Source: a virus (Duplodnaviria > Caudoviricetes). From it: a DNA stretch of 58,372 nt. A program made the translations under genes and the position numbers. Location of the stretch: positions 1 to 58,372 of the IMG/VR virus record IMGVR_UViG_3300032327_000398; one strand, 5' to 3'. Below are positions 4,957 to 52,879 of this stretch, one piece after another. The notes under the pieces are model-generated. The model saw only the letters and a program-made list of their open reading frames with translations, did no database searches and was not told the DNA's origin. The stretch's first letter is position 1, and each line of letters starts with the position of its first letter.

Positions 4957-5457
4957 TTATGAGTCAGCTACTAACAAATCACTAACATTCTCGTCAAGCA
5001 CTGGTTCTAGTTCTGGCTCAGGCTCGGCATACGGATTTCGAAGATCAAATAAAGCTTTGGCTTCAACGCTTCCGGCATCTACTACAGCCTGAGCATTGGT
5101 TCGCTCGAGCAAATCAGCATCAATAGCTTCTTGGTTTGTAACCAGTCCGACTTCATTGAGTTCTTCTTCAATGACGGGCAGCGCAAGTCGAGCCGATGCC
5201 TTCTCTAATTCCAGCACTTGCAAGAGTAGAACCATGTCTTCAGTTGCGGCTTTACCTTCTGCCAGCGAATCCACCACAGCCGCATCACAAGCCGATATAA
5301 ATGCGCGTTCAGAGTCAGACATAGACTCTTTACGATAAAGCCGTGCTGCCTTTAATTCATCGGTTGCAGACACTTTTGATCGGATGATTGCTTGGACTTT
5401 GTTTGCAATATCCGTCGCTGACCAAATGTCATTTGCCATTAGATTAATGAAACTCAT
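4957..5457 (-). CDS. Tail-fibre-associated protein (possible chaperone)
   Basis: ATGA-coupled to the large fibre gene; acidic, helical. Confidence 0.45.
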   Translation of the reverse strand: MSFINLMANDIWSATDIANKVQAIIRSKVSATDELKAARLYRKESMSDSERAFISACDAAVVDSLAEGKAATEDMVLLLQVLELEKASARLALPVIEEELNEVGLVTNQEAIDADLLERTNAQAVVDAGSVEAKALFDLRNPYAEPEPELEPVLDENVSDLLVADS

Positions 5458-8400
5458 GTTGCACTCCTTACGGCACGAATTTGTACTGCGACGTTGTAGC
5501 CCGGAGCTGTACCGAACCTGATTGTTTCTCGGAAACCATCAAACAGTCTTGTGTAGTCTTTTGTTGAACCTTCAGTCTTGACCACACCAGCAGCTGAAAC
5601 TTGTACTGTTTCGTAGCCAACTGGAAGCACAAAGTCTGTGAAGCTAATCAGTGCCGCTGATCCGCTCCCTGTAGCTTTAGCTGAGAGATACGCTGTAGTG
5701 CCTACCAGATCGACAATGTAGGTTGATGCAGGAATACCTACACCTGTGATAACAGCGTTTTTGATCGTTGTCTGTGCAGGGTATCCTGAGCCAGCAACAG
5801 CAGTTACAGCGGTATTGCCTGTGACCGTTGTGCAAGTAAAGCCACCGATATAGTCGAACACTTGCTGCAATCGTGACAGTCTTGCAGCAGCTTCACCACG
5901 CTTGACTAGCTCTTCTCTAAGACCATAGGCAGGAATCGTTACATCAACCCCAGGACTTGTTGTAGAGCGTGCATTGAGCTTAACTCCACCACCGGCCTGT
6001 ACTTTTGAATACGATCCAGCAGGGACTGCTGTGACAGCGGTGCGAACCAGACCCGTCCACGATGCCTCGTTAGTTGCGGATACAGAAATCCACTTGTCCG
6101 TCACTTCGTCGTAAGCCAAATCAACAATTGTATTGGCATCAGGTAGCAGACAATTTGCACCGTCGCGGAACATTTGCTTTTCCTGCTCGTACATGAACGT
6201 AGACTGTTCTTGTGTCGGCGCGGTTGCACTGAGTTTAAGCATTGCAAGTGAGCCAGGGAATGGAGCATCGAGCGCGTAGCTGTTGCCAATTGTCAGGACA
6301 GCGTTGGCATTGTTGAGCGTAAGTAATGGGTTGCCGTAGGTTGTTGCGACAACAATACCGTTAACCGATATTGCAAGTGATCCATCAGGGCGATACACCG
6401 CACGTATTTTTTGCCAAGTGTCCTTAGTGATTACAGGGTTTGTATTTGTCCCAGTAAATGCAGGATACGTCACAGTGCGTGTAGTCGTACCATCAAACGC
6501 ATTTGCTTGAATGTAGTCAGGCCCTAAAGTGACAACTTCAAAATACGCACCACTAGAGTATTTTCTTGAAACAATTGTTGATGGTTTAACCTTGAATACA
6601 GTGAGATTCTGAATAGTGCCTGTAACTCCCCCGCCAAAATCAAAACCAACTACGTTTCCAAAATTAATATTAAAGGCAGTAAAAATTCTGTAATGTGTAC
6701 CAGTTGAAGTAATGTTGTTTACACTGCTATTCCATTGCGGTGCATGACCAATTCGTACAGGTATATTGCCATTAATTACTGTCACATCAAACTTCACCAG
6801 TACTACATCACCGAGAGTTAACGCTGGAAGCGGATAAGTTACATAATGCGTAACTGTACCGATTTTTGTAAGAGATCCACCTGACACAGTACATTCCGCG
6901 TCTAATCCCGTCCACCCAGTAGAGCTTGTAAAAGCACCGGCACCGGCAAGTAGATCACTACCGTACACAGGATAATTAGCTGACAAAGCCGATGTTGGCA
7001 TATTTAGCCAAGTGCTCACACTAAACTCACCAGTACCAAAATCTAGGTCAGCACTGTATGGTTCTTGCAAGTAATTTGCTGTACTGAAGCCCGAGTAGGC
7101 TACGACTTGATTGGCTGTATTTGTGAGTGCTTTGGTGAGAGTGCCGTAGATATTTGCGCTTGCTGCTTTGTAGCTGCGGTCAAGTACTTTAATTTTTATG
7201 CTTAGATCATCGTAAGTGTTTACAACACCAGTGCCGTTGCCGCTGTCTCCAAGCGAAAGATAAATCGTCGATTGTGTTGGGGTAAAAACCACCGCCCCAG
7301 TACCAGCCCCCGAAAATGTTACATATGCGGCGTTACTGATACTATTTCCAAGCAAGACTCGACCACCGCCATTTTTCACAACAAAATTACCGTAAAAAAC
7401 TTGCGGCACATTTGGCGTTACCGTAATGGCTTGATAGACGTATCCTGCGCCGTTGTTCGTGACTTCAAGTTGTCCAGATGAGTTTCGTACAGCAGACACG
7501 TTGGCAGTGCTGCTAGTCCAACCAGAAGCATCGGTGTTAAATGTTCCGTTGACCACCAATTCTGGGCCAGTAATACTCTCAACGACACTATCTGCTAAGT
7601 AAGCACGACGAATATCACCAAGCAGATGACCCGTGTTGTATGTTGGATATATTCTTGCAAGAATTGCTTTGTTAGTATTACTTTTATTTGGACGTAAAAG
7701 ATTTACACCTGAACCTTGAATTGCAGCGCTTGATTTACCTTCGGAGATTGTTTTAGCTCCACCAATATTATTGTTTAGTTTTACTAATGCTAATGCTCCA
7801 TAGTTTTGAACTGAGTCATCTAACAGATTCCAAATCCATGCACCGTTAAATGTATCTGGCCCAACACCACTTACAAGCAAGTTGTATCCATCAAAACTAA
7901 CAAAGTAGCAAGTTGCAGAGACATATGCTTTTGTAACCAACGACCCGTCATGTTTAATTACAGATACACCACTAACAGTAGCCACAGCAATTGTTGGTAC
8001 TGGCAAGCCTGTTACGGGGTCAAGCGGAGCGTCTGGTAAAACGGTCATTGCTACTGCGTAAATAGTGTTAGATGCTATGCCTATATAGTTTGTAGGATAA
8101 ATCCAGTTCAACGCATTGTGCCGAGTAGAAATGCCTCCATTTGGCCGACCCGCATTGGAGGCATACGCAAATTTCATACTGTCAGATGTGAATTCAAAAA
8201 TGTGTCCACCATTACCATTAGATGAAATAAATACTTGTGCATTAATAGCAGACAATGCCGAAATTGATCCGCTTCCATTCCACCAATTGTTATTTGATGC
8301 AACCGCTGCACGCATCCACATCGGTCTACCAGCTTCCGTCAAATCATAAATAGTGACGTTTGCGCCCTCTGCAACAATTGCACACAACTTTGGAAACTTA

Positions 8401-10886
8401 GCTTTGTTGCCTCGGAATACTTCGGTTGTTGCGCCATCCGCAGATTTATCTTCATAAGCTGTAACCGCAGAACCAGTCTCAATTTGTATATGCCAAAAAT
8501 AAAGATCAGTATTTCCATCTAATGCATACGACTGATTTAAACCATTATTTGAATTGTTAGAGCCTATCCCAATAGTGGATGTTACCGTTGTGTTAGCAAC
8601 AAAAGTCATGGTGCAGAGATACCAGCCGTTACCTATAGAGGTAATCGTACTTGTTGCTCCTGTACTTGCAACTGTGGATGGTGTTTGTAAGTCAAACGTA
8701 GACGTAAAATTGTTGTAATTACTAGAAGATAAAGAGCCATATCTTCTTGTTGAGTTTTTCATGTAAGCAGAAACGGTGTAGGTTATCCCAGCAGTAAGAG
8801 CCACACTCTGTACTCGGTTATGTCCATTCGAACCAATTTCTGTATATAGAAATGCAGTACTTGACCCGTCTGGGGCAGTTGTTGCTGTAGTGGCAGTTAC
8901 TGTAGAGTAACTACTATTCCATACCCCGTTTGTAAGTGCGTTACTGTACTTAAGCAAATTCTTCCACAATCTGTAAAACTTACCATCTGGCGTGAACTGT
9001 AAGTAATCACCAGAGTTAGTGTTTGTATTGACAACGGTTGATACTTGATAACCTGAAAGAGATAATGTATTTCCACTAGTTGTTCCGATTGAGAAATACA
9101 TTGTGGTTGCTGTAGCAGTAAAAACAATAGGAAGCCCAGTTGTTGCATAGTCAGTTCCGTTTGCTGCGGATGTACCAACTCGAAGATAACTAACCGTTCC
9201 AGTAAAAGTTCCAGTAATTTTATAAACTGATCCGATAGTCAGTCCAGATAAGGTGTCTACAGCCCAAGCAGGTGAACCACTAACCCAAGAAACAGTTAGA
9301 ACATTATTAGAAATCGAAAGTGAAGTTTGACCCCCATTATTTCCAATATTTGATACGCTTCTTCCTAGTGAAGTTACGGATGCGATAGCAAATCTAGCCT
9401 GAATCTCTGAAGCGTTTGCACCTAACCAAGTACCACTCAGCTTCTCGTTATACCAACTGGTCTGCTGACATTTCTCAGTCCAGGCACCACCATCAGAATC
9501 TTTGCTTGTGTCATACACAAACATTGAAGTAACTGCATTTGGTGAGCGATGCAGGGCTTGAGCTGCGATACCTGACAAGTCTTGTGTGAGCACACTAGCG
9601 GCACTTGCTGCAAACCCTTGTGCTGCACTCTGAGCAGCCTGTGCAGCCGTTACAGCATCAGCTTGAGCCTGTGTACTACCGTAGATCGCGAGGGCTTGTG
9701 CTGCTGATCCTGACGATGCTCCTGCGCTGGTGTTGGCGGCTGTTGCACTCGATGCGGATGATGTTGCGCTTGCAGATGCTGCGCTGGCTTGGGTTGTTGC
9801 AATGCCTGCTTGTGTGGTCGCTGTTGAAGCACTAGTCGAAGCACTGGCGGCGCTTGATGATGCACCTGAAGCACTTGTAGACGCTGATGAGGCTTGCGTC
9901 GTAGAAATAACGGCTTGTGCTGTCGCAATGCCAGCTTGCGCGGCTGCTGTGGATGCTAAGCTTGCGGCTGTCGTGGCCGAGCTTGCTGCGGCTGAAGCAG
10001 ATGAACTTGAGGCAGCTCGGTCAAGACCTGTTTGCACAAGATCCGCTGTAGTACCAGATTTATCGACACCTACCTGAGTACGATCTAACCCCGTCTGTAC
10101 GCGATCTAACCCTGTTTGCGCACGATTGGCTACTGTCGCCGTACGATCTGATCCGGTCTGAACTACATCCGCTGCTGTTGCGGCACGGTCAAGACCTGTT
10201 TGTATACTATCTGACCTAGTACCTGCTTTATCGGACGCCGTTTGAACCTTATCAAGACCTGTTTGAACGCGATCGGCGGCAGCAGATACGGCACTTGCAG
10301 CAGCCTCAGAAGCTTTTGTTGATGCAGTTGCGGCGCTTGCAGCAGAAGCTGTTGCGCTTGTTGACGCCTGAGACGCTCTTGTTGTGGCTGTTGATGCCGA
10401 TGTAGCAGAACTCGCTGCGGAAGAAGCCGATGCGCTTGCTGAGGCTGCGACGATAGATTGTGATGATGCTGCAGCATTGGCCGAGGCTTGGGCTTCAGCA
10501 GCCTTAGCAACAGCAATAGACCCAGCGGCTACTGCGGCATCGAGAATAAGCTGTCCGTCTGTCTTTCCGTCGTACGCAGGAAGCTCCGCAATCAGATGAA
10601 GCTCGGTAGAAGAAACATTAGGCACCACAGCATTAACAGTAAGACTTTTCCCCCCCGGTGGCACAATCTTAATCGTATACATCGACTCGGTGGAGCCGAG
10701 CTGGTTAGGCCACAACACAAGCGTGACTTGTCCAGAACTATTTGTTGTTCCCGTAATAGTCTGCGGAACGATGTACCCTAAATAAACTTCGTATTGGTTT
10801 AGCTTTGCTGTGATAACAGCATCCACTACGGGTTGTCCGCCATCATCATATACACTGCATAAGACATTACAGGTTGGGAGTGTCAT
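5454..10886 (-). CDS. Large tail fibre/spike protein (1810 aa)
   Basis: N-terminal anchor, long Ala/Ser/Thr and QTGLDR repeats, then beta-rich carbohydrate-binding/LamG-like segments. Confidence 0.8.
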   Translation of the reverse strand: MTLPTCNVLCSVYDDGGQPVVDAVITAKLNQYEVYLGYIVPQTITGTTNSSGQVTLVLWPNQLGSTESMYTIKIVPPGGKSLTVNAVVPNVSSTELHLIAELPAYDGKTDGQLILDAAVAAGSIAVAKAAEAQASANAAASSQSIVAASASASASSAASSATSASTATTRASQASTSATASAASAATASTKASEAAASAVSAAADRVQTGLDKVQTASDKAGTRSDSIQTGLDRAATAADVVQTGSDRTATVANRAQTGLDRVQTGLDRTQVGVDKSGTTADLVQTGLDRAASSSSASAAASSATTAASLASTAAAQAGIATAQAVISTTQASSASTSASGASSSAASASTSASTATTQAGIATTQASAASASATSSASSATAANTSAGASSGSAAQALAIYGSTQAQADAVTAAQAAQSAAQGFAASAASVLTQDLSGIAAQALHRSPNAVTSMFVYDTSKDSDGGAWTEKCQQTSWYNEKLSGTWLGANASEIQARFAIASVTSLGRSVSNIGNNGGQTSLSISNNVLTVSWVSGSPAWAVDTLSGLTIGSVYKITGTFTGTVSYLRVGTSAANGTDYATTGLPIVFTATATTMYFSIGTTSGNTLSLSGYQVSTVVNTNTNSGDYLQFTPDGKFYRLWKNLLKYSNALTNGVWNSSYSTVTATTATTAPDGSSTAFLYTEIGSNGHNRVQSVALTAGITYTVSAYMKNSTRRYGSLSSSNYNNFTSTFDLQTPSTVASTGATSTITSIGNGWYLCTMTFVANTTVTSTIGIGSNNSNNGLNQSYALDGNTDLYFWHIQIETGSAVTAYEDKSADGATTEVFRGNKAKFPKLCAIVAEGANVTIYDLTEAGRPMWMRAAVASNNNWWNGSGSISALSAINAQVFISSNGNGGHIFEFTSDSMKFAYASNAGRPNGGISTRHNALNWIYPTNYIGIASNTIYAVAMTVLPDAPLDPVTGLPVPTIAVATVSGVSVIKHDGSLVTKAYVSATCYFVSFDGYNLLVSGVGPDTFNGAWIWNLLDDSVQNYGALALVKLNNNIGGAKTISEGKSSAAIQGSGVNLLRPNKSNTNKAILARIYPTYNTGHLLGDIRRAYLADSVVESITGPELVVNGTFNTDASGWTSSTANVSAVRNSSGQLEVTNNGAGYVYQAITVTPNVPQVFYGNFVVKNGGGRVLLGNSISNAAYVTFSGAGTGAVVFTPTQSTIYLSLGDSGNGTGVVNTYDDLSIKIKVLDRSYKAASANIYGTLTKALTNTANQVVAYSGFSTANYLQEPYSADLDFGTGEFSVSTWLNMPTSALSANYPVYGSDLLAGAGAFTSSTGWTGLDAECTVSGGSLTKIGTVTHYVTYPLPALTLGDVVLVKFDVTVINGNIPVRIGHAPQWNSSVNNITSTGTHYRIFTAFNINFGNVVGFDFGGGVTGTIQNLTVFKVKPSTIVSRKYSSGAYFEVVTLGPDYIQANAFDGTTTRTVTYPAFTGTNTNPVITKDTWQKIRAVYRPDGSLAISVNGIVVATTYGNPLLTLNNANAVLTIGNSYALDAPFPGSLAMLKLSATAPTQEQSTFMYEQEKQMFRDGANCLLPDANTIVDLAYDEVTDKWISVSATNEASWTGLVRTAVTAVPAGSYSKVQAGGGVKLNARSTTSPGVDVTIPAYGLREELVKRGEAAARLSRLQQVFDYIGGFTCTTVTGNTAVTAVAGSGYPAQTTIKNAVITGVGIPASTYIVDLVGTTAYLSAKATGSGSAALISFTDFVLPVGYETVQVSAAGVVKTEGSTKDYTRLFDGFRETIRFGTAPGYNVAVQIRAVRSAT

Positions 10887-43203: not shown

Positions 43204-43415
43204 TGGAAAAGGTTAAACAACTACCCGTCGAGGGTATGGTTCGGCTCAGCGACTTGATTGGGGGGCCTACCCGGATCATCCCCTTTTCCCGTGCCACGAT
43301 CTACCGAATGATTGAGCAGGGCACTTTCCCTAGGCCTAAACGATTTGGTAACTGCGTGGCGTGGCCGGTGCAAGCCATCCGTGCATGGATAGATTCCGTG
43401 TCTAACTCTGAATGA
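43203..43415 (+). CDS. alpA: AlpA-family regulator/excisionase
   Basis: SRATIYRMI..GTFPRP...VAW....I.AWI; converges on the integrase. Confidence 0.88.
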   Translation: MEKVKQLPVEGMVRLSDLIGGPTRIIPFSRATIYRMIEQGTFPRPKRFGNCVAWPVQAIRAWIDSVSNSE

Positions 43416-44631
43416 ACCCCTTGGTATCCCTACCCTCGGCTAACGCATCCAGATAATCAGCCCATACCTGCATCATGCTCGTACGCTGCTTGAGGTGCTT
43501 AGTCCGGTTGTAGGCCGTGCCGTGGAGATCCTTCACCATGTGGCCAAGTTGTTGCTCGAGGTAGGTGTCCTTGAAGTTAAGGACTTCCTCCGCAATGGTA
43601 CGAAAGGTCGCACGAAACCCATGCACGGTAGTCTCTGTTCTCTCAAACCCCAGACGCACGAGCGCCGTATTTAACGTGCCGTCACTAATGGGTCTAGACT
43701 TTTGTAATCCGGGAAAAAGATATTCTCCATCGCCCGTTAAAAGTTTTAGTTCCTCAAGCTTTGCCACGACCTGAGTAGCTAGGGGCACAATCAACTGTGT
43801 TCCCAGTTTCTTCTCGGTCTTATTTGGCGTAAAGCTCCAAGACTTGTTCTTGAAATCAATATCCTCCCACTTAGCACGACGAATATCCCCAGGTCTAATC
43901 GCCACACGGGGCACTAACCAGAGCGCACACTTTGTCGAAGGACGTACCTTGGCATGCGGAATTGCTTTAAGTAGCACAGCGAGTTCAGCGGGATCGGTAA
44001 TCGCAGCAAAGTTATTGGTCTTAACCGCTGGCAGCGCACCCACCAAGTCCCGCGCGGGATTATGTTGAACCATCCCACGAATGACAGCAATTGAAAAGAC
44101 CCGCTTAATATCGGATAGCGCTCTATGCGCGATGTCATTGGAGCGTTGCACGATACGCTCGATTACGTGCAGGATCTCAGGGCCTGTAATCTCTTCCAGC
44201 GGTCTGTGCCCAAGGTAGGGTAATACGTCATTCTTTTGGCGGGTCGTGACATGTTCAAAGTGTTCGTCCACCCAACCACTGCGCTCCTTCTCAAGCCACA
44301 GCTTATAAGCAACTTGATACGTATTCTCAGTCTGGATAACGAGGGCTACCTTCTTGGCAACTTTAACCACCATCGGGTCACGCCCCACATCCAAGTCGGC
44401 TTTTGCAGCCTCTGTGGCCTTGCGCGCAGCAGCGAGGGACATCTCAGGGTATCGACCCATCGTTAGGGTTTTATATTTACCCCCGTACTTGTAGTTCATT
44501 CGGAAGGTAATCATGCCGCTTGGGCTTACGTACGCATACATCCCTGTCCCGTCTCCAAGCTTTACGGGCTTCTCCGAGCCTTTTACGCTGCGGAGCTGCA
44601 TGTCTTTTAGTTTCATTTTTACCTTCGGCAA
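43402..44631 (-). CDS. int: P4-type tyrosine integrase
   Basis: Arm domain DGTGM...GRYPEMSL..AR; catalytic R (RPGD), HGFR, LGH, AY; alternative ATG at 44616. Confidence 0.93.
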   Translation of the reverse strand: MPKVKMKLKDMQLRSVKGSEKPVKLGDGTGMYAYVSPSGMITFRMNYKYGGKYKTLTMGRYPEMSLAAARKATEAAKADLDVGRDPMVVKVAKKVALVIQTENTYQVAYKLWLEKERSGWVDEHFEHVTTRQKNDVLPYLGHRPLEEITGPEILHVIERIVQRSNDIAHRALSDIKRVFSIAVIRGMVQHNPARDLVGALPAVKTNNFAAITDPAELAVLLKAIPHAKVRPSTKCALWLVPRVAIRPGDIRRAKWEDIDFKNKSWSFTPNKTEKKLGTQLIVPLATQVVAKLEELKLLTGDGEYLFPGLQKSRPISDGTLNTALVRLGFERTETTVHGFRATFRTIAEEVLNFKDTYLEQQLGHMVKDLHGTAYNRTKHLKQRTSMMQVWADYLDALAEGRDTKGFIQS

Positions 44632-44929: not shown

Positions 44930-47900
44930 TTAGTTGGCATAACCAGCAGCTTTTACCCCACTAGTTTGCAGGTTTTTCGTGGTGCGTTGATCGTACTTAC
45001 GAGCAGCCTGCGGGGCTTTAAAGAGCTGTGACATGGGCTGGGTTTTAAACCCAAGGTCTCTGCGCGATGCATTGATCTCTGTCCATCGCTCCCGTGCGTC
45101 CTGCATGGCAGCGCTATCCCCCTTCTTATACGCTTGAACGTAATCGTGTTCCACCTTCTGCGTTTCTTTTCGGTAGTACGCTTCGTAGGTAGTTTCCACG
45201 CGATTGATGAATTCCTTATCCGCTAACGTATTGGTCTTTAACCCAACAGCGGTCATCATGGAGTCAAACACCCCGACTTCAGCTGGTGACAAAATCGTAG
45301 CTCCGTTGGCACGCGTCAATCCCTTTTCTTGTTGATCGAACGCCTTAACGATATTGGCAATACCTGTGGGCAGTGCTTTTTGCAGACCACCGATAAAGTC
45401 ACCATCAGCCATCTTACCCATACCCTCAAAGGTCTTGGCAGCTAGACCCGCAGTTGGGCCAGCCATACCCAGAAGAATATTCTCCGCAGTGCTTCGGGAC
45501 GCATCCTCAATCTTGGTGTAGGGCAGCAGAGACAGCATCCCACCAAACCCACCAAAGATAGGTTCCATGTCCATGCCAAGTGATTTGGGAACACCTTTGA
45601 GTAGGAAGTTTGCGAGCCCTGTGTCGCCAATGGCACGACGCATGCGGGCTTCTTGTGCTTCTGGATCGTCCGGTTCATCGCCATCGGACATTATCTTTCC
45701 AACCATCCATGCAATGGCTTTGTAGCCGGGCAGCGCCATCAACCCACCGAAGGTAAATGCAGTGCCTAGGGTATACCCTAGTGCGTACTTACCGACCGCG
45801 CGCTCTTCTTTGGATGCACCGGTAAATGCTTGCTGACCGAGTTTAACCATCAGCGACAACTGCACCATCTGGAATTTACGGAACTGAGTCAGTACACGCC
45901 CGGTCTGCGTGCGCATAATGCGCGGTGCGTTAAAGCCTGAGTAATCGCCATGAGTATCGTAAACAGTTTTGCCAGCGTACTTGACCGCAGCATCGTGACC
46001 CATGGTAGGTTTGGCCAGACGGTAAGCCGCGACAGCAGTTGTCACACGGTTAATCCCCTCGACACGTTCTGCCATAGTCTGCAGCTTGGATGTCACACGG
46101 CTAAATGCATCTGTACCTTTCAAACGATCACCCATCTCTTGGTCGAGATCGACGTTAAGCTCACCGCGCTCCATCAGTTCGTGGACAGCCTTCTGCACGT
46201 CCTTGGGCAATTTATCAAGCACGTCACGCGTCAGGTTATTACCCGCCATCACAGCGCCCACATCTTTATAGGCTGTCAGCATCGCACTCACCGCCTGACC
46301 TTGGAAACGACCTGCCAGATAGGGCAAGCTCATCGTCCATGGTTGCATCGCGTTCTGCACGTAGTACAGGGGCTTGGTCAATAACTGCATGACCGAGTTG
46401 GCTTTAAGGATCTTGCCGACTAACTTATTTTCTTTAGACTCAATGCCCATACCATGGCGGGTAAGGATCTCGTTATGCAGGTCTTGGCGCTCCATACGAT
46501 TGTCAGTCGTAATGTCCTCAGCTTCCTTTTTCATGCCGTCGAGCGAGTCTTGGATTTCCTTGGACTTATGAAGCCCTGCCAGAAAGGACGCGTTTGCCAC
46601 GCCGTGCTGGTAGAACGAGCGCATCATGTTGTTCGTCGCACCGGCAATATCATCACGGTGGTGTTCGGAATGACGAGCACTCTGCTCGCTCAGAAGCTGC
46701 AGGTGCAGCTGGGTCAGTAAGTTGTTAATTGCCCGGTGGCTTGCGCTTAAGTCGTCCTCATCTTTCTTATTAGCCAAGCTACGTGTGCGGTACAGCAAGC
46801 CCTGCATCTCTTTGCCACCAAACTTATTGGCTGCATCGTCCTTCATAAAGGATTGGGTTTCGCCATACTTCTTGAGCTGCTCCTCGATCTTGGCAGCTTG
46901 CACACCGTTCTCTGCGAAGTGAACTTGGAAGTGCTTGGGGTCATCACGATTCTTATTAACAAACTTCTGGGCGGCTTTGATCGCAGCTTCGTCGTACTGG
47001 CCTGATTTGCGATTGTTCAGGATGTCCTGATTCATCATCATCTCGGGCGAGCGCATGGTGACAACATGATCGCCAAAACGACCGAGCGGTGCGTAAGGGT
47101 TTTCCCCACGTATATTCATTACGCTATTGAGATGTCCGAGCTCAAAGTCTTTTTCATCTTCGAGTCGCTTGACTTCCTTGACGTCTCCCACAGCGCGTGC
47201 GTTAGCAATACCAATGTCGTAGTTTGCGATCGTGGTGTCTTCGATCTGGTGCTGGATCTGCTTCATGCTTGAGTAGCCATGGGCGAACACGTTACGCACG
47301 ACCTGACGGGCTGCGTCAGTAGTCAAGTTCTTATAGGCAAGTTCCAAGCCCGGGTCAACCTTGGCAGTGTTCTGCCCTGTCGACGCATTAGTAAGCCAGC
47401 TCGGTGTAAATGCCCAGCGTTTGTTACGTGTGGATTCTTTAATGAGTGCGTTGACCGAGCGCTGATCGGCTGCAGACAGTGCCTCAAAGCTCTGACCAAT
47501 CTTTTCAACGGCGCGGCGTTCATCATTACGGATGGCAACCTGCTCACCCATGGCACGCATATACGACACGGCGGACGGCATGTATTTCTCAGCGCGCGCA
47601 ACCAGATCCTTGGTAAAGGAAAGTGCCATCACACCACGCTGGATTTGCTCCGCGAAGGACTTGTAATAGAGCTGTGCGTTTGGGGGGAGCTTGGCTATGT
47701 TCTTGGCAACAACACCCTTGGCAGGTAGAGAGAACTGCATGTCTCCCACATCACCATTACGGGCAGTCGCTACACGTTGGATGTTCTTGTCGTTAAAAAT
47801 AACCGAGTTACGCGTTGCCGTTTTAACTTCTGGATGTTTAGCAACGTAATCTGCTAATCGCTTTTTACGCTCGGCAAGGTATTGCTCAGCGCGAGTAACG

Positions 47901-50900
47901 TCCTCTTGTCTTTTAGGTAGCCACTTATCCTTAGATATGTAAAACCCTGCAAGAGACACGGGGTGTTTTAATTCCCACTCGCTCGGTTTTTCCGCAATGT
48001 ATTTCTCTAACTCATCTTTTGACTCTTGGAGCAAAACCTCTGCAGCTTGGACGTCTCTAGTGTAGCGGGCAGTTCGTTTACGAACAAGATTACCCGAGCG
48101 GCTTGGATCGTCCAAGAACTTGAGACCTTTGACACCATGCTCATCTAAATACATGGACGCTGCGCGGTCGTCCTGACCCTGCTCTTGTGCATCCAGCACG
48201 TCTGGGTTGTTCGATGGGATCGTATCGTCTCTACTTGCTCGCTCAAGTATTTTGTAAAGATCTTTACCCGTCATCTCAGTTGCGTCGATGTTTATCTGAT
48301 CGAGGTAGTCATCAAAGTTTTCTTGCCCAATCTCTGAGCGTATTTTCTCAACGGCTTGTTTGACGTGATCGCTTTGCTCGGACATCGGCGCATCATAATC
48401 TAGCCACTCGTAGTCAGCGATGTTTGAGTCCACACGGTGCAGTGAGCCTTGGTTAGTGTCTGATTGCCGTCCTTTATTTTTAATATCACGCACACGATAG
48501 CCTTGGCCAATACCAAAGCGTTGGGCAGCATAAGTACCCCAACCGAAAGCCTGAGCGCCCTCACCTGAGTTCATGAACGCGTGATTAAATTTTCTGAATG
48601 ATGCTGCGGTGCCGTGCCAGCTTCCAGACATTTCTAACTTGGCTGCACCGTAGGCCATGTCGACCATATCCTGCGCAGTGAGCTTCTCTGGATTGAACCC
48701 AAGTTTACGTATCGCTGCTTTCATGGCAGCGTAAACCGAACGGAACCAACGACCAAGCTCGGACTTGTAGCTCAGCGCCGTAGGATCAACACCCATGTTG
48801 ATCGCTTCTTCAAGGAAGTACGCAACAAGCTCGGTATTACGTTGATTGTCAGATGCGTTAGCAGAAAATACTCGGCCAAGTGCTTTGACAGCAATCTTGG
48901 ACTCGATGGAGTCGTCCTGCTTTCCAGCCCATGCAACAATACTATCTACTAGCTTGTCAAACTGAGCGTCGTTAAGCAGACGTTGAATACCGAGATGGGA
49001 GCCAACTTCATGAAGGAACACAGCCCGTGTCATACCCTTGGGGATATTTCCCGCGATCAGGTAAGCCTTTCCACCCGCAACGACACCCCTTGAGTTAGCG
49101 TCGAACTTCGGGTGGTTACGAATATCAGCAGGTAATTGTTCAACCGATTCAACAACTACCAGACGGCTTTCGTTTAGGGTTCCAACAAATTCTTTAACCG
49201 CAGCATTTGCGGAAGCAACCGTTTCAGTTTCTCCATTGGTACTCGTATTGCTGGTACTGTTCTGGATAGCGTCGTCTTTGGGTACGAGCCCATTCTTCTC
49301 CATGAACTTAACTACGTCCGCTAGCTTTTGGCTCGGCAGGTCAAAGGCTGCAAAGTCTGACTGTTGCTTCTCGGTTAGCTCTGAGAACTTCTTGGCACCG
49401 GGGATTACGGCAACGGCTTTGTCCCATGACCTACTAGCCACGTCCTTGCGTGTCTCTCCTACCGCAGCGGTCTGCGCGGGTGCTGCTTTCTCAGTGGTTT
49501 TCTCGGCAGCGACTTTTCTAGGTGTGGTTACTTTCTTAGGCTTTTCTGTACCCGTTTCTTTCTTGCTTAGATTTTTCTTGGCCGCTTTGATGTTGGCTGT
49601 TGCCTGCTTTGTCTCAAAATCATCAAGCGCTTTCTGAGTGGACTCTACCAAGTCCTGATCGCCAGCTTCGTGCGCGGCATCATTAGCTGCTTGGAGTGCT
49701 TCCCATTTGGCAGCAGCGGCTTCGTTTGTATTACCAAACTCACTTTTGCTCGCGCCGGTGCTACCAGTACGAATATTGACGTTAGACTCGATATTGCCTT
49801 CGCTGTCTATAGACCCATCGCCCAGTACAGATTCTTGCTCGAAGCCACGAACACCTGAGCCATCTTCCAAGAACTGCTGGATTTCGCTTTTCTCGTTCTC
49901 ACGATCCGCAGACTCAATCCATTTCGTAACTTCGCTTGGTGCAATAAGTGCTTGGTAAAGATCAGTCGGGGTCATGCCCTCCGGCAACTGAATCGAAGAT
50001 CCGATAGCGTTGAGTGAGGTGGCGTACTTAGCCAGCCAACGCGATATATCCCCACTATTACGAGGAATATCTGCACTCCATTTCTTAATCTGAGACTCAG
50101 TTACCCCTAGCTCTTTGGCAATTTCTGCCTGCGTGTTATTACGGTCTGCTAGAGCCCGACCCCAGTTTTCTTGGAAAAATTTGGCTTTCGCTTCAAGATC
50201 TTGACCTTGCGGAGTGGCGTGACGAAAAACTCGTAATAAAAAATCACCAATAAATGATCGAGTTTTTTCGGCCTCTATTTCGACGAGGGGTCTTTCGCTT
50301 TCTTGAGTTGACTGCGTTCGAAGGCCGGTAGAATTGCCTTGAATATCTCTATCGAGTTGCGTGTCACCATCTTGTCGTGCGCCAGCGTCCCCCGTTTGGG
50401 AGTCTGATCTGACGACAATGCGGGTTCCACTGGTGTCAATAGAGAGTCCGGTACCTGCAGTTCCTGATCCTGCTGCGGGTCTATCGGTGGTTTGACCATT
50501 TGTGTCATCCTTTCTTGGAGCGCGGCCTTTGGAACCGATGAGTTTACCGGAAGACGTGAGCTTTGGTGCAGGATTTATTTCCTGCGTTTGACTGCCATCA
50601 TTGGAAATATTGGCATCGGGGGTGAGTACGGCTCGTTGTCCATCTCCACCATCTCCGCTGGTGTCATTTTGCTCGCCATTCGATCCAGCAACGATACTTC
50701 CTGCTCCGACGGGTTGAACGCCCGTTGATCGTATAAGCCCAATTTGGTTTCCGCTAGTTTCATTTGTTCCGCTTTGCTCTGGAACTTCTCCCAGCCCGGC
50801 AGTGTTTTGCAATCCTTCATTTGATGCTCCTGTAGTGTTTTGAGTTAAAAGCGTGCGAAGACCATCTGGCGCTGCCGGCGATACCAACCCTGCGCGTTCC

Positions 50901-52879
50901 ATTTGTCCTAGCAAATCTTGTGCGCGTTTATAGTCAACCCGGAAATGTCGTTGGATAAGCGACACCGATGCGCGATTATTTTTTTGTATTAGCTCGACTG
51001 CTGGGGCGTAGAGCGGATCAGTTGCAGCGTTTGCGGCATCCAGACGTGCCTGTGCTTCTTTAACTGCGTCTGATGTAGCCGTTGTAACTGCACTTGGTGC
51101 AGTAGAGTCAACTTTTGTATCGGTAGCAACAGGTGTTGCAGCCGTGGTAGCTACGGCAGTGGATGCAGACTTAGCAGCGGGTTTACCAGTGGGTGTTTTC
51201 TTGGCGTCCTTGGTTGCCTGCTTAGCGGCCTGCTTATCCGCCTCAGCCTTGGCTACCTCAGCTTGATGTGCGTCATTACGCGCCACCGCACGTTCCCTAG
51301 CCGGTGAGTCAGCCCCAGTTAATTCTTTGTGTAGTTTGTTTAGCTCGTTGGCAAACTTAGCACCCTTGCCATCAAGACGTATGTCTTCACTTGCAGGGAT
51401 CGCGTCAATCTGTGCGTCAATCCTGGAGATAACTTCAGCAGGGTTTGCAGCCGTGTCTAACTGGTTCTTCTTTAGGTACGCTGTAACTGCGTTCACTACC
51501 CCTTTAGGGTTTGCGTCAGGCGTGACTTGTACCGCACCCGAATTAATAACCGCACCGATAAGCGTCTTTTGCTCAGGTGACATATTGGAGGACGCTTTTT
51601 CGAGTCCGACGATAAATGCCTTAGCGTCATTCTGGGTAAAAATTGGTTTACTACCGATTGAGAATTGTCCCGTTGGATTACCATCTGCGCCCATGGTTGG
51701 ACGAACACCAAACGTCCCTGCGACAGTAGCAAAGCCTGCATCATGTGATGCCTGTGTCTGCTGCGCTGCAGCGGCAGCATCAGCTTGTTGTTTCTGGATA
51801 TTAGCGGCAGCAACAGCTGCGGAGTCAGCCTCGTTCTGTTTAATCTGTTCAGGAGTCAGCAATTGCGGGCCGATACTTGCCACGGCTTTAGCTTGGGAGT
51901 TGGCAGCGATTTGCTCAGGCGTAAGCGAAGAGGTGTTCGTGAAATCGTTTTCATTAATGGCAGCACCAATTGCACCACCCGCGCTTGGCCTACGGCCTCT
52001 AAAGCCAGCGGGCAAACCCATCACACCTTCAACTACACCGCCAATCACACCGGCATTTAAACGCTGGCTGAACTTCTCGTCATCAGTAAGTGGCTTGCCA
52101 ACTGCCATCTCAAGCTCACCTTGCGTAAGCTCACTTGTCGCACCCGATGCGCCCTGCACGGCAAAGTTCTTGCCCATACGTGTCAGCAGATTACCCGAGG
52201 CACCACTGCCATTGGCGAGCTTTCCAAACAACATAGCTTGGGGAATAGTCTCGGCCAGAGCATGCGGAACCGCACCAAGGAAGGCAGTAGCACCGGGGCT
52301 TTTATCTTCTGGGTTCTCGCTCGCAGAGTCATACATCGAGCCCACGCCCGTGCCGTAATTAAACGCAGCACCGCCCGTAATAGCACGGGCTAAGTCTTTG
52401 CCGCCTTCAAGAGCTGCACGTCTGGCTGCAAACGACGACCCAGCCTCAAGCGCTGCAGCCCCACCACCACCAAGTATTCTTGGAACGAACGCCGCACCTC
52501 GTGCGAGCGCAGCGGGTATAGCCACTTCGGGGAGTGCGATAGCGGTAGCTACTGATCCAGCTAGGTTAGGGAGTTGCTTACCAATCTGATACGCCAACAT
52601 CGGGGCAGCGTTGCCCCAGCTAATGTCTTCAATCTTCTCTAGGTCTGGGCGACCGTTTAACCTTGACTCTATGCTGTTTCGATCAGCGCCCTCCTCACCC
52701 CAGTTTTTTATCTTGTTAGAGCCAACTAGATCACCGATAGCTGCGATACCAGAGTATCCAAGGCCCTGCAGATCGTCGATACCTGATGATACGCCTGATA
52801 CTAAAGCGTTACGGTCTTGCCGTCTAATATCCTGAACAGGGTCATTGTCTAGTGGTTCAAAATCGTTAAGCAACGCCAT
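44930..52879 (-). CDS. Giant polyvalent internal virion/ejection protein (2649 aa)
   Basis: Gly/Ala hydrophobic N-terminus, FtsK-gamma-like domain, HTH, HEVGSH zincin-like, WHGT...FGWGTY ART-like and PLGRFG motifs. Confidence 0.8.
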   Translation of the reverse strand: MALLNDFEPLDNDPVQDIRRQDRNALVSGVSSGIDDLQGLGYSGIAAIGDLVGSNKIKNWGEEGADRNSIESRLNGRPDLEKIEDISWGNAAPMLAYQIGKQLPNLAGSVATAIALPEVAIPAALARGAAFVPRILGGGGAAALEAGSSFAARRAALEGGKDLARAITGGAAFNYGTGVGSMYDSASENPEDKSPGATAFLGAVPHALAETIPQAMLFGKLANGSGASGNLLTRMGKNFAVQGASGATSELTQGELEMAVGKPLTDDEKFSQRLNAGVIGGVVEGVMGLPAGFRGRRPSAGGAIGAAINENDFTNTSSLTPEQIAANSQAKAVASIGPQLLTPEQIKQNEADSAAVAAANIQKQQADAAAAAQQTQASHDAGFATVAGTFGVRPTMGADGNPTGQFSIGSKPIFTQNDAKAFIVGLEKASSNMSPEQKTLIGAVINSGAVQVTPDANPKGVVNAVTAYLKKNQLDTAANPAEVISRIDAQIDAIPASEDIRLDGKGAKFANELNKLHKELTGADSPARERAVARNDAHQAEVAKAEADKQAAKQATKDAKKTPTGKPAAKSASTAVATTAATPVATDTKVDSTAPSAVTTATSDAVKEAQARLDAANAATDPLYAPAVELIQKNNRASVSLIQRHFRVDYKRAQDLLGQMERAGLVSPAAPDGLRTLLTQNTTGASNEGLQNTAGLGEVPEQSGTNETSGNQIGLIRSTGVQPVGAGSIVAGSNGEQNDTSGDGGDGQRAVLTPDANISNDGSQTQEINPAPKLTSSGKLIGSKGRAPRKDDTNGQTTDRPAAGSGTAGTGLSIDTSGTRIVVRSDSQTGDAGARQDGDTQLDRDIQGNSTGLRTQSTQESERPLVEIEAEKTRSFIGDFLLRVFRHATPQGQDLEAKAKFFQENWGRALADRNNTQAEIAKELGVTESQIKKWSADIPRNSGDISRWLAKYATSLNAIGSSIQLPEGMTPTDLYQALIAPSEVTKWIESADRENEKSEIQQFLEDGSGVRGFEQESVLGDGSIDSEGNIESNVNIRTGSTGASKSEFGNTNEAAAAKWEALQAANDAAHEAGDQDLVESTQKALDDFETKQATANIKAAKKNLSKKETGTEKPKKVTTPRKVAAEKTTEKAAPAQTAAVGETRKDVASRSWDKAVAVIPGAKKFSELTEKQQSDFAAFDLPSQKLADVVKFMEKNGLVPKDDAIQNSTSNTSTNGETETVASANAAVKEFVGTLNESRLVVVESVEQLPADIRNHPKFDANSRGVVAGGKAYLIAGNIPKGMTRAVFLHEVGSHLGIQRLLNDAQFDKLVDSIVAWAGKQDDSIESKIAVKALGRVFSANASDNQRNTELVAYFLEEAINMGVDPTALSYKSELGRWFRSVYAAMKAAIRKLGFNPEKLTAQDMVDMAYGAAKLEMSGSWHGTAASFRKFNHAFMNSGEGAQAFGWGTYAAQRFGIGQGYRVRDIKNKGRQSDTNQGSLHRVDSNIADYEWLDYDAPMSEQSDHVKQAVEKIRSEIGQENFDDYLDQINIDATEMTGKDLYKILERASRDDTIPSNNPDVLDAQEQGQDDRAASMYLDEHGVKGLKFLDDPSRSGNLVRKRTARYTRDVQAAEVLLQESKDELEKYIAEKPSEWELKHPVSLAGFYISKDKWLPKRQEDVTRAEQYLAERKKRLADYVAKHPEVKTATRNSVIFNDKNIQRVATARNGDVGDMQFSLPAKGVVAKNIAKLPPNAQLYYKSFAEQIQRGVMALSFTKDLVARAEKYMPSAVSYMRAMGEQVAIRNDERRAVEKIGQSFEALSAADQRSVNALIKESTRNKRWAFTPSWLTNASTGQNTAKVDPGLELAYKNLTTDAARQVVRNVFAHGYSSMKQIQHQIEDTTIANYDIGIANARAVGDVKEVKRLEDEKDFELGHLNSVMNIRGENPYAPLGRFGDHVVTMRSPEMMMNQDILNNRKSGQYDEAAIKAAQKFVNKNRDDPKHFQVHFAENGVQAAKIEEQLKKYGETQSFMKDDAANKFGGKEMQGLLYRTRSLANKKDEDDLSASHRAINNLLTQLHLQLLSEQSARHSEHHRDDIAGATNNMMRSFYQHGVANASFLAGLHKSKEIQDSLDGMKKEAEDITTDNRMERQDLHNEILTRHGMGIESKENKLVGKILKANSVMQLLTKPLYYVQNAMQPWTMSLPYLAGRFQGQAVSAMLTAYKDVGAVMAGNNLTRDVLDKLPKDVQKAVHELMERGELNVDLDQEMGDRLKGTDAFSRVTSKLQTMAERVEGINRVTTAVAAYRLAKPTMGHDAAVKYAGKTVYDTHGDYSGFNAPRIMRTQTGRVLTQFRKFQMVQLSLMVKLGQQAFTGASKEERAVGKYALGYTLGTAFTFGGLMALPGYKAIAWMVGKIMSDGDEPDDPEAQEARMRRAIGDTGLANFLLKGVPKSLGMDMEPIFGGFGGMLSLLPYTKIEDASRSTAENILLGMAGPTAGLAAKTFEGMGKMADGDFIGGLQKALPTGIANIVKAFDQQEKGLTRANGATILSPAEVGVFDSMMTAVGLKTNTLADKEFINRVETTYEAYYRKETQKVEHDYVQAYKKGDSAAMQDARERWTEINASRRDLGFKTQPMSQLFKAPQAARKYDQRTTKNLQTSGVKAAGYAN
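50275..50499 (-). CDS. Putative nested +1-frame ORF B inside the giant gene
   Basis: AAAGGA-8 nt-ATG; 74 aa MVKPPIDPQQDQ...KKAKDPSSK. Confidence 0.45.
   Translation of the reverse strand: MVKPPIDPQQDQELQVPDSLLTPVEPALSSDQTPKRGTLAHDKMVTRNSIEIFKAILPAFERSQLKKAKDPSSK
50575..50820 (-). CDS. Putative nested +1-frame ORF A inside the giant gene
   Basis: ACAGGAG-6 nt-ATG; 81 aa MKDCKTLPGWEKF...MMAVKRRK with protein-like composition. Confidence 0.55.
   Translation of the reverse strand: MKDCKTLPGWEKFQSKAEQMKLAETKLGLYDQRAFNPSEQEVSLLDRMASKMTPAEMVEMDNEPYSPPMPIFPMMAVKRRK

Follow-up and report, generated by a model that had tools for sequence, protein, structure and literature searches.

The DNA analysed here, a complete 58,372-bp record of a tailed phage with direct terminal repeats (IMG/VR record IMGVR_UViG_3300032327_000398; below, the window), contains at the end of its structural module a giant open reading frame (ORF) of 2649 aa (44930-52879, minus strand), which spans a much smaller ORF in another frame. 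This smaller ORF, nested-A (50575-50820, minus strand; 81 codons plus TAA), is read in the +1 frame of the giant ORF, the latter being taken as frame 0, and represents with high probability a genuine and conserved protein-coding gene embedded in the giant gene. Its ATG at 50820 is preceded, at a distance of 6 nt, by the Shine-Dalgarno (SD) sequence AGGAG (50827-50831, minus strand). Further downstream follows another +1 ORF, ORF2 (50275-50508, minus strand), which comprises 77 aa when read from ATG 50508 and 74 aa when read from ATG 50499; an AAGGA motif (50508-50512) is located 8 nt before ATG 50499 and overlaps the earlier ATG 50508, which has no SD of its own. A preliminary description of the window, made from its letters and ORFs, had pointed to two same-strand +1 ORFs with these SD motifs just past an FtsK-gamma domain of the giant protein; both are present as described, ORF2 having ATG 50508 in addition.

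Conservation of nested-A and the frame under selection

Relatives of nested-A were sought with phmmer among 1.84 billion representative proteins, the query being the +1 read-through of both ORFs with its single TAA stop written as X. The search returned ten matches at E <= 1e-3 (best 1.3e-13; sizes 55-99 aa), all of which align to nested-A nearly end to end, from about residue 3 onward, and none to ORF2. Common features of the family are an N-terminal LPGWE, a central NPS.QE, a hydrophobic patch and a basic C-terminal tail. In the source annotation the homologues are named 'hypothetical protein' or not at all; many of their contigs are shorter than 2 kb and some extend to 21-55 kb.

When IMG/VR was scanned with an alignment of five members of the nested peptide family, 56 loci with 41-68% identity to the nested-A product were identified. 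At all 56 the homologue lies in the +1 frame within an open frame homologous to the giant ORF, which is intact in 35 loci (2137-3119 codons) and reaches the end of the contig or locus in the other 21; the third forward frame is broken at the 56 loci, with open spans of 12-112 codons. A further 48 loci, 47 on metagenome contigs and one on a contig of a metagenome-assembled genome (MAG), all show the same embedding, and 32 of them carry a nested ORF not identical to any of those from IMG/VR. Together with the window, the 56 IMG/VR loci provide 57 sequences, 56 of them delimited, 54 complete and 46 distinct at the nucleotide level (the locus L056 is cut by a contig end). Each of the 46 distinct versions starts with ATG and has a GGAG or GGA(A/C) core 6-7 nt upstream of it, a signal likewise present in the 48 further loci; the encoded length varies between 78 and 91 aa, and the stop codon is TAA in 45 versions and TAG in one. 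The closest protein relative of the giant protein, P0004 (2823 aa; available as protein sequence only), is 60% identical over the C-terminal ~1170 residues (1478-2647) and 50% overall. In the +1 frame behind its sequence, 33 of 50 family consensus residues are possible at one site, compared with 9.7 +/- 2.8 at other offsets and 18 at the next best one, and the collinear nested-A blocks reach 20/25 and 19/25. P0004 very probably carries nested-A too.

The DNA relatives of the linker came to light only when the family of nested peptides served as the query. When the giant protein, or a two-sequence alignment of it, was used instead, the scans yielded nothing, or only the distant C-terminal relatives L002 and L003; blastn of the linker DNA gave no match in GenBank phages or plasmids, and tblastn of nested-A gave none in 50,697 GenBank phage records, so that no cultured member of the family was found. 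Among 185,579 species genomes, nested-A was observed in just one contig, a 1261-bp piece of an Actinomycetota MAG that is too short for naming a host.

The distribution of substitutions reveals which of the two superimposed frames is constrained. In an alignment guided by the nested protein (1035 pairs), the sequences differ at nested positions 1/2/3 by.366/.279/.436, and in the 73 close pairs by.117/.071/.210; the least variable position is the third position of the host frame. Computed from identical bases, amino-acid identity amounts to.575 in the nested and.415 in the host frame and is higher in the nested frame in 99.6% of the pairs. An independent alignment of 32 complete giant ORFs, guided by the host protein, shows differences at host positions 1/2/3 of.463/.384/.634 outside the nested span (2254 columns) and of.429/.346/.319 within it (80 columns). 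Sliding windows along this alignment contain clear third-position dips (ratio < 0.9) at residues 671-760 and 1091-1140 only; ratios near 1 are reached in windows 791-860, which hold 12-24 aligned columns, and 1621-1690, which are essentially unalignable. Site-class counts over 18 non-overlapping pairs with 75-97% nucleotide identity gave a ratio of nonsynonymous to synonymous change (dN/dS) of 0.24 for the nested frame (dNN/dNS; bootstrap 0.19-0.29) and, for the same pairs, of 1.17 for the host frame (dNN/dSN; bootstrap 0.93-1.62).

As read from these patterns, the constraint over nested-A rests on the embedded frame, and the sequence of the giant protein appears free here except for staying open. 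The impression in the preliminary description that the host frame resembles the off-frame of a real gene is thereby borne out over this span. Since third-position conservation and dN/dS both follow the nested frame, the giant protein would read the DNA of nested-A as an unconstrained, disordered linker rich in G, S and T, the sole requirement being the absence of a stop codon. Ribosomes would start independently at the AGGAG-6 nt-ATG signal on the mRNA of the giant gene and thus produce a protein of ~80 residues. Of the properties by which an embedded gene is recognized, an open alternative frame in diverged homologues, conserved start, ribosome-binding site (RBS) and stop, purifying selection in the nested frame and a loss of synonymous variation in the host frame limited to the overlap were found for nested-A.

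ORF2 and further +1 frames of the linker

The linker is unusual in composition. Its host frame (residues 679-868) contains 16.3% G, 10.5% S and 12.1% T and is entirely devoid of M, F, Y, W and H; L, I, V, M and F together account for 14.7% of the linker compared with 22.7% of the gene. Because the NTA and NTG codons of the latter five residues create +1 stops, long +1 runs favour the linker. In the whole giant gene, the +1 frame has 100 stops in 2650 codons, the longest open runs being 119, 101, 99, 89, 89 and 82 codons. Synonymous resampling of the gene gave P(longest run >= 99) = 0.80 and P(two adjacent runs >= 189) = 0.139, with the longest double run falling on the linker in 100 of 300 trials, and +1 runs of at least 75 codons occur in 17 of the 35 long ORFs of the phage. 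The length of the nested ORFs is therefore unremarkable by itself. Unlike length, the +1 composition of the linker is beyond chance: linker windows occupy nine of the top ten +1 coding scores among 637 windows of phage genes, the nested-A span scores 5.6 bits (synonymous resamples, -32.7 +/- 10.1) and the ORF2 span 6.0 bits (-23.3 +/- 9.0), neither value being reached in any of 3000 resamples, and both also top redraws without +1 stops. Over the linker the host-frame coding score falls, and host-frame third positions are A in.36 and G in.09 of cases (.22 and.24 in the phage genes). This codon skew was considered as the cause of the +1 signal and rejected as insufficient alone, an equal or stronger skew being present in the gene at 5454-10886 without a high +1 score. 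SD-like motifs (4-mer or longer) precede 14.5% of linker positions compared with 4.8% on the whole strand, and 18 of the 35 long ORFs of the phage have one. Among sequencing samples, the phage was present only in the probable source sample; contigs from three sequencing runs contain the identical sequence plus short unrelated pieces, and no variants were found over the linker.

If ORF2 were a real embedded gene as well, specific to the lineage of the window, the two-gene mini-operon of the preliminary description would be right in full. This appears doubtful, despite several observations in its favour: the +1 score exceeds that of every resample, AAGGA stands 8 nt before ATG 50499, relatives possess other +1 genes at this place (A2, see below), and the first 25 residues of ORF2 are attainable in the +1 frame of P0004 at 16/25 (z 5.2). 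However, blocks 26-50 and 51-75 are at background level in P0004 and not collinear. The ORF2 half of the query has no homologue among the 1.84 billion representatives, and the ORF2 product, when compared by tblastn with the 56 loci plus the window, matched nothing but itself. In L004, the closest DNA relative, three +1 stops occur within 15 codons past the stop of nested-A. Moreover, SD-like motifs are common throughout the linker, the length is unremarkable, and the conserved patch around the ORF2 start lies partly outside any ORF of the window. A frame that stays open in diverged homologues was not found for ORF2, which has no counterpart. ORF2 is probably not a gene on this comparative evidence; most likely it would be a +1 frame that is open by chance or in decay, at a place where relatives have embedded genes, and its high +1 score may be a legacy of such genes, for example of A2. 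Hence, of the two genes postulated in the preliminary description, the first stands as conserved and selected and the second does not; likewise, the conservation of SD, ATG and open +1 frame in homologues, which it had named as a check, is found for nested-A and not for ORF2.

A patch of the host frame with a GRAPR core (50509-50545, minus strand; residues ~778-798) is common to the window, P0004 and L004. Since most of it falls between the two ORFs of the window, it may belong to the giant protein as such.

A2 is a different +1 ORF of about 56-66 aa which follows nested-A in 17 loci (14 distinct; e.g. L035:6723-6899, L016 and L028). Its start codon either forms part of TAAATG or lies 12 nt farther on with a GGAG of its own. 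The nested-frame pattern (.204/.169/.354) is confined to the first 35 codons, the tail displaying that of the host frame, and Pfam and PHROG family searches gave no match. In the window, a +1 stretch similar to the middle of A2 lies directly past the nested-A stop (50497-50574, minus strand) and contains the short motifs PVN..(S/K)P and QERMT, recognized by eye only. The window has ATC where the relatives have ATG after TAA, and the stretch is read as a start-less remnant of A2 because there is no start codon. Different protein-like +1 frames past nested-A were observed in other loci (L009, L015, L025, L032, L039; L033, L041, L058; L012, L049; L004), one group of which shares a PFQVPPKSP motif; these may be additional embedded genes or else by-products of conservation in the host frame.

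A further +1 ORF, nested-B, is present in 39 of the 46 distinct loci (e.g. L017:9249-9401), 666-1431 nt downstream of nested-A. It encodes 44-57 aa beginning with MPFKS and has an SD-like motif, an ATG or GTG start and a TAA or TAG stop. Nested positions 1/2/3 differ by.298/.254/.410, amino-acid identity is.60 in the nested and.45 in the host frame, and the second third-position dip described above, at giant-protein residues ~1091-1140 (window 49460-49609, minus strand), corresponds to this ORF. Nested-B matches phrog_1375 weakly (E 6.7e-4). It is absent from the window, where the equivalent site has +1 stops and no copy was found elsewhere in the genome. In spirit, the hidden mini-operon of the preliminary description thus applies to the relatives, some of which have A2 directly after nested-A and most of which have nested-B, but not to the window, which retains the A2 remnant and no nested-B.

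Alternative readings and the product of nested-A

Instead of or besides independent initiation, nested-A might be reached by a programmed +1 frameshift from the giant frame, which would fuse a truncated N-terminal part of the giant protein to the nested sequence. SD-like sequences are known to stimulate frameshifting, as in prfB and dnaX, and could be counted for this scenario; the same applies to the open stretch of +1 frame, 7 to about 60 codons long, that precedes the ATG at most loci. Nevertheless, we consider it very unlikely, as the ATG is kept in 46 of 46 versions at a fixed distance of 6-7 nt from the SD, upstream +1 residues are conserved only where the SD imposes them, and in L051 a stop codon immediately precedes the nested-A ATG. 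Even less credit can be given to a nucleic-acid element, either an RNA structure or a DNA site, or to a constraint of the giant protein as the origin of the conservation, with the open +1 frame as a mere by-product. Conserved DNA indeed yields similar off-frame translations, and the third frame also clusters across 23 loci. Yet this third frame is full of stops, the three-base periodicity tracks the nested frame, whose third position is the most variable, the nested dN/dS is low while that of the host is about 1, and nested start, stop and length are conserved. Finally, the notion that both frames are open by chance in a linker poor in hydrophobic residues, where the NTA/NTG codons needed for +1 stops are rare, agrees with the depletion of L, I, V, M and F, with the frequent placement of the longest double run on the linker and with ORF lengths within expectation, but is refuted for nested-A by all comparative evidence, i.e. 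homologues, conserved signals and substitution patterns, and can practically be dismissed.

Several points weigh against nested-A as a genuine gene. No family, fold or partner was found for its product by Pfam, PHROG, PDB or structure prediction, the AlphaFold model from a 52-row alignment being weak (four short helices; predicted local distance difference test score 68.4, predicted template modelling score 0.36), and no sequencing run of RNA was found to contain the phage. The product in the window, P0002, has 10 Met in 81 residues, which is an off-frame signature of AAT or GAT codons next to codons that begin with G. The loci share ancestry, so that the 104 loci do not correspond to 104 independent events. 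The first substitution alignment was guided by the nested protein itself, although the host-protein-guided alignment agrees with it, and the dN/dS values of 0.24 and 1.17 are simple counts without correction for multiple hits, with an SS class of 13 sites only. As for ORF2, its reading as no gene has against it a +1 coding score as high as that of nested-A, which this reading explains only loosely.

The searches for relatives of the product can be detailed as follows. Neither P0002 nor the ORF2 product P0003 has a Pfam or PHROG match. Ribosomal_S16, the best Pfam match on 52 nested-A members (E 0.0032), was taken as chance, and a PDB profile search with nested-A gave no match at E <= 1. A language-model neighbour search (Atlas) for P0002 provided no usable match. 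For a typical member, language-model neighbours (0.87; 115 shared features) led to regulators of the Rha/AntA/KilA-N type; this lead was rejected, the value being too low for a true relative by the figures of the tool itself, and these families gave no Pfam match at E <= 1 in the 52 members and no PDB sequence match. Complex prediction of nested-A with the conserved N-terminal 530 residues of the giant protein resulted in a score of 0.00, with controls not folded.

The host gene, known overlapping genes and biological meaning

The genes of the phage include an integrase, a family-A DNA polymerase, a primase-helicase, a portal, a major head protein and tail fibre genes. According to the portal protein, its closest cultured phages, with 26-37% identity, are Rhizobium phages of the RHph_TM type and marine Roseobacter and Pelagibacter podophages. 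The integrase gene (43402-44631, minus strand; phrog_1, E 1e-51) adjoins the giant gene, and the phage may therefore be temperate, even though the species genomes hold nested-A only in the one MAG contig mentioned above. The gene of an 1810-aa tail protein (5454-10886, minus strand) has a lower G+C content (0.44-0.45) and the strongest third-position A-over-G skew of the phage, which suggests a different origin or different constraints.

In the giant protein, an FtsK-gamma winged-helix domain (residues 620-678; 50846-51022, minus strand; Pfam FtsK_gamma, E 8.8e-16) is located immediately upstream of nested-A. A weak helix-turn-helix (HTH) motif follows at residues 911-934, where HTH_28 stays under the Pfam cut-off (22.4 vs 25 bits), and residues 1092-2622 match phrog_10089, 'DarB-like antirestriction' (E 5.4e-39). 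For zincin and ADP-ribosyltransferase-like domains, which the preliminary description had placed next to the nested ORFs, the giant protein of the window gave no Pfam match; a HExxH string is visible near residue 1290. P0004 bears PF18760 (precomputed Pfam, supplied with no family name). When tested as a polyvalent protein, the host gene thus presents FtsK_gamma above the Pfam cut-off, HTH_28 below it and one DarB-like PHROG match, and its product would be a multidomain virion-module protein of the 'polyvalent' type. In 31 relatives hardly any columns align with a low-complexity stretch plus FtsK-gamma (50846-51297, minus strand; residues ~526-670), of which the FtsK-gamma part is missing from P0004; the stretch appears to be an insertion peculiar to this phage among the relatives aligned. 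The proximity of FtsK-gamma to nested-A is judged to be incidental, because P0004 very probably still encodes nested-A without it.

Embedded +1 genes are already known in phages and small viruses. In phage lambda, the small gene Rz1 lies wholly within the larger Rz gene in the +1 frame with its own RBS and start, and both products are made. Nested-A resembles Rz1 in being wholly inside a larger phage gene on the identical strand, in the +1 frame and with its own RBS and start. Rz1, however, is a secreted lipoprotein with signal peptide and lipobox, and its host is a 150-codon lysis gene, whereas the N-terminus of nested-A is polar (MKDCKTLPGWEK) with no hydrophobic signal by inspection, its Cys is not conserved (absent in L004), and its host is a virion-module gene of 2100-3100 codons whose frame is without amino-acid constraint over the overlap. 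An embedded o-spanin of the Rz1 type was consequently rejected, as neither signal nor lipobox was seen by inspection and the host is not an i-spanin in a lysis cassette. Microviruses, whose tiny genomes are pressed for size, have overprinted genes such as B within A, E within D, and K. These cases share with nested-A that one DNA stretch is read in two frames and that synonymous variation in one is suppressed by the other; they differ in that here a 58-kb tailed phage is concerned, a disordered linker within a giant protein is the site of the overlap, and one host gene contains, in relatives, as many as three different small genes (A, A2 and B). With respect to small phage proteins, nested-B weakly resembles phrog_1375 and is thus akin to a free-standing PHROG family, whereas nested-A matches no PHROG.

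Among the polyvalent proteins of phages and conjugative elements, the FtsK winged HTH is listed as an infrequent domain (Iyer et al. 2017, PMC5512222). The giant host gene resembles those described there: it is very large and multidomain, and it encodes an FtsK winged helix and an HTH as well as a DarB-like region at the C-terminus. In the main text of that paper, searched by term, 'overlap' does not occur, 'nested' and 'embedded' refer to hairpins and peptidase domains only, and genes in other frames are not described. This term search and the literature searches found no description of the arrangement, so that its designation as undescribed in the preliminary description appears fair for the nested-A family and its host gene. 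New in this sense are the nested-A family, the giant multidomain virion-module host, the unconstrained linker host frame and the presence of up to three embedded genes per host gene.

What nested-A might do can be considered on the basis of its location. Locked into the giant gene, it would be made at the time and place of the giant protein. As inheritance and expression of both are inseparable, nested-A would most likely act together with the giant protein, and we would guess at an assembly or packaging cofactor or a regulator; the role as chaperone or inhibitor suggested in the preliminary description is conjectural as well. A more far-reaching and tentative proposal, which we regard as possible rather than probable, is that the giant genes for injected or virion proteins in this phage group are 'operons within a gene', in which open frame-0 linkers host a changing set of independently translated +1 genes and the small proteins serve as obligate cofactors. 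Nested-A would then belong to all of these sets, nested-B to most, and A2 and perhaps lineage-specific members such as ORF2 to some; the benefit of the arrangement would lie in the small genes being inherited and translated together with the giant protein, and the cofactors might be, for example, packaging adaptors or keepers of the enzymatic domains of the giant protein. In this view, and as the composition would suggest, the small genes are the older ones, and the giant ORF expanded by reading across them.

Standard gene callers do not report genes lying wholly within a longer gene on the same strand. For this reason the nested-A family, spread over about a hundred phage contigs, is mostly invisible in annotations, where it turns up under no other name than 'hypothetical protein' and mainly on short fragments. 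With nested-A, a large tailed phage provides a clear natural example of dual coding, in which the linker frame is apparently free and the embedded frame strongly constrained, and this example is useful for ideas on the origin of overlapping genes and on the growth of giant phage proteins by fusion across intervening genes. The disordered linkers of giant phage proteins are accordingly places to seek hidden genes, and nested-A itself is a candidate cofactor for giant virion proteins, a class whose assembly and delivery are poorly understood.

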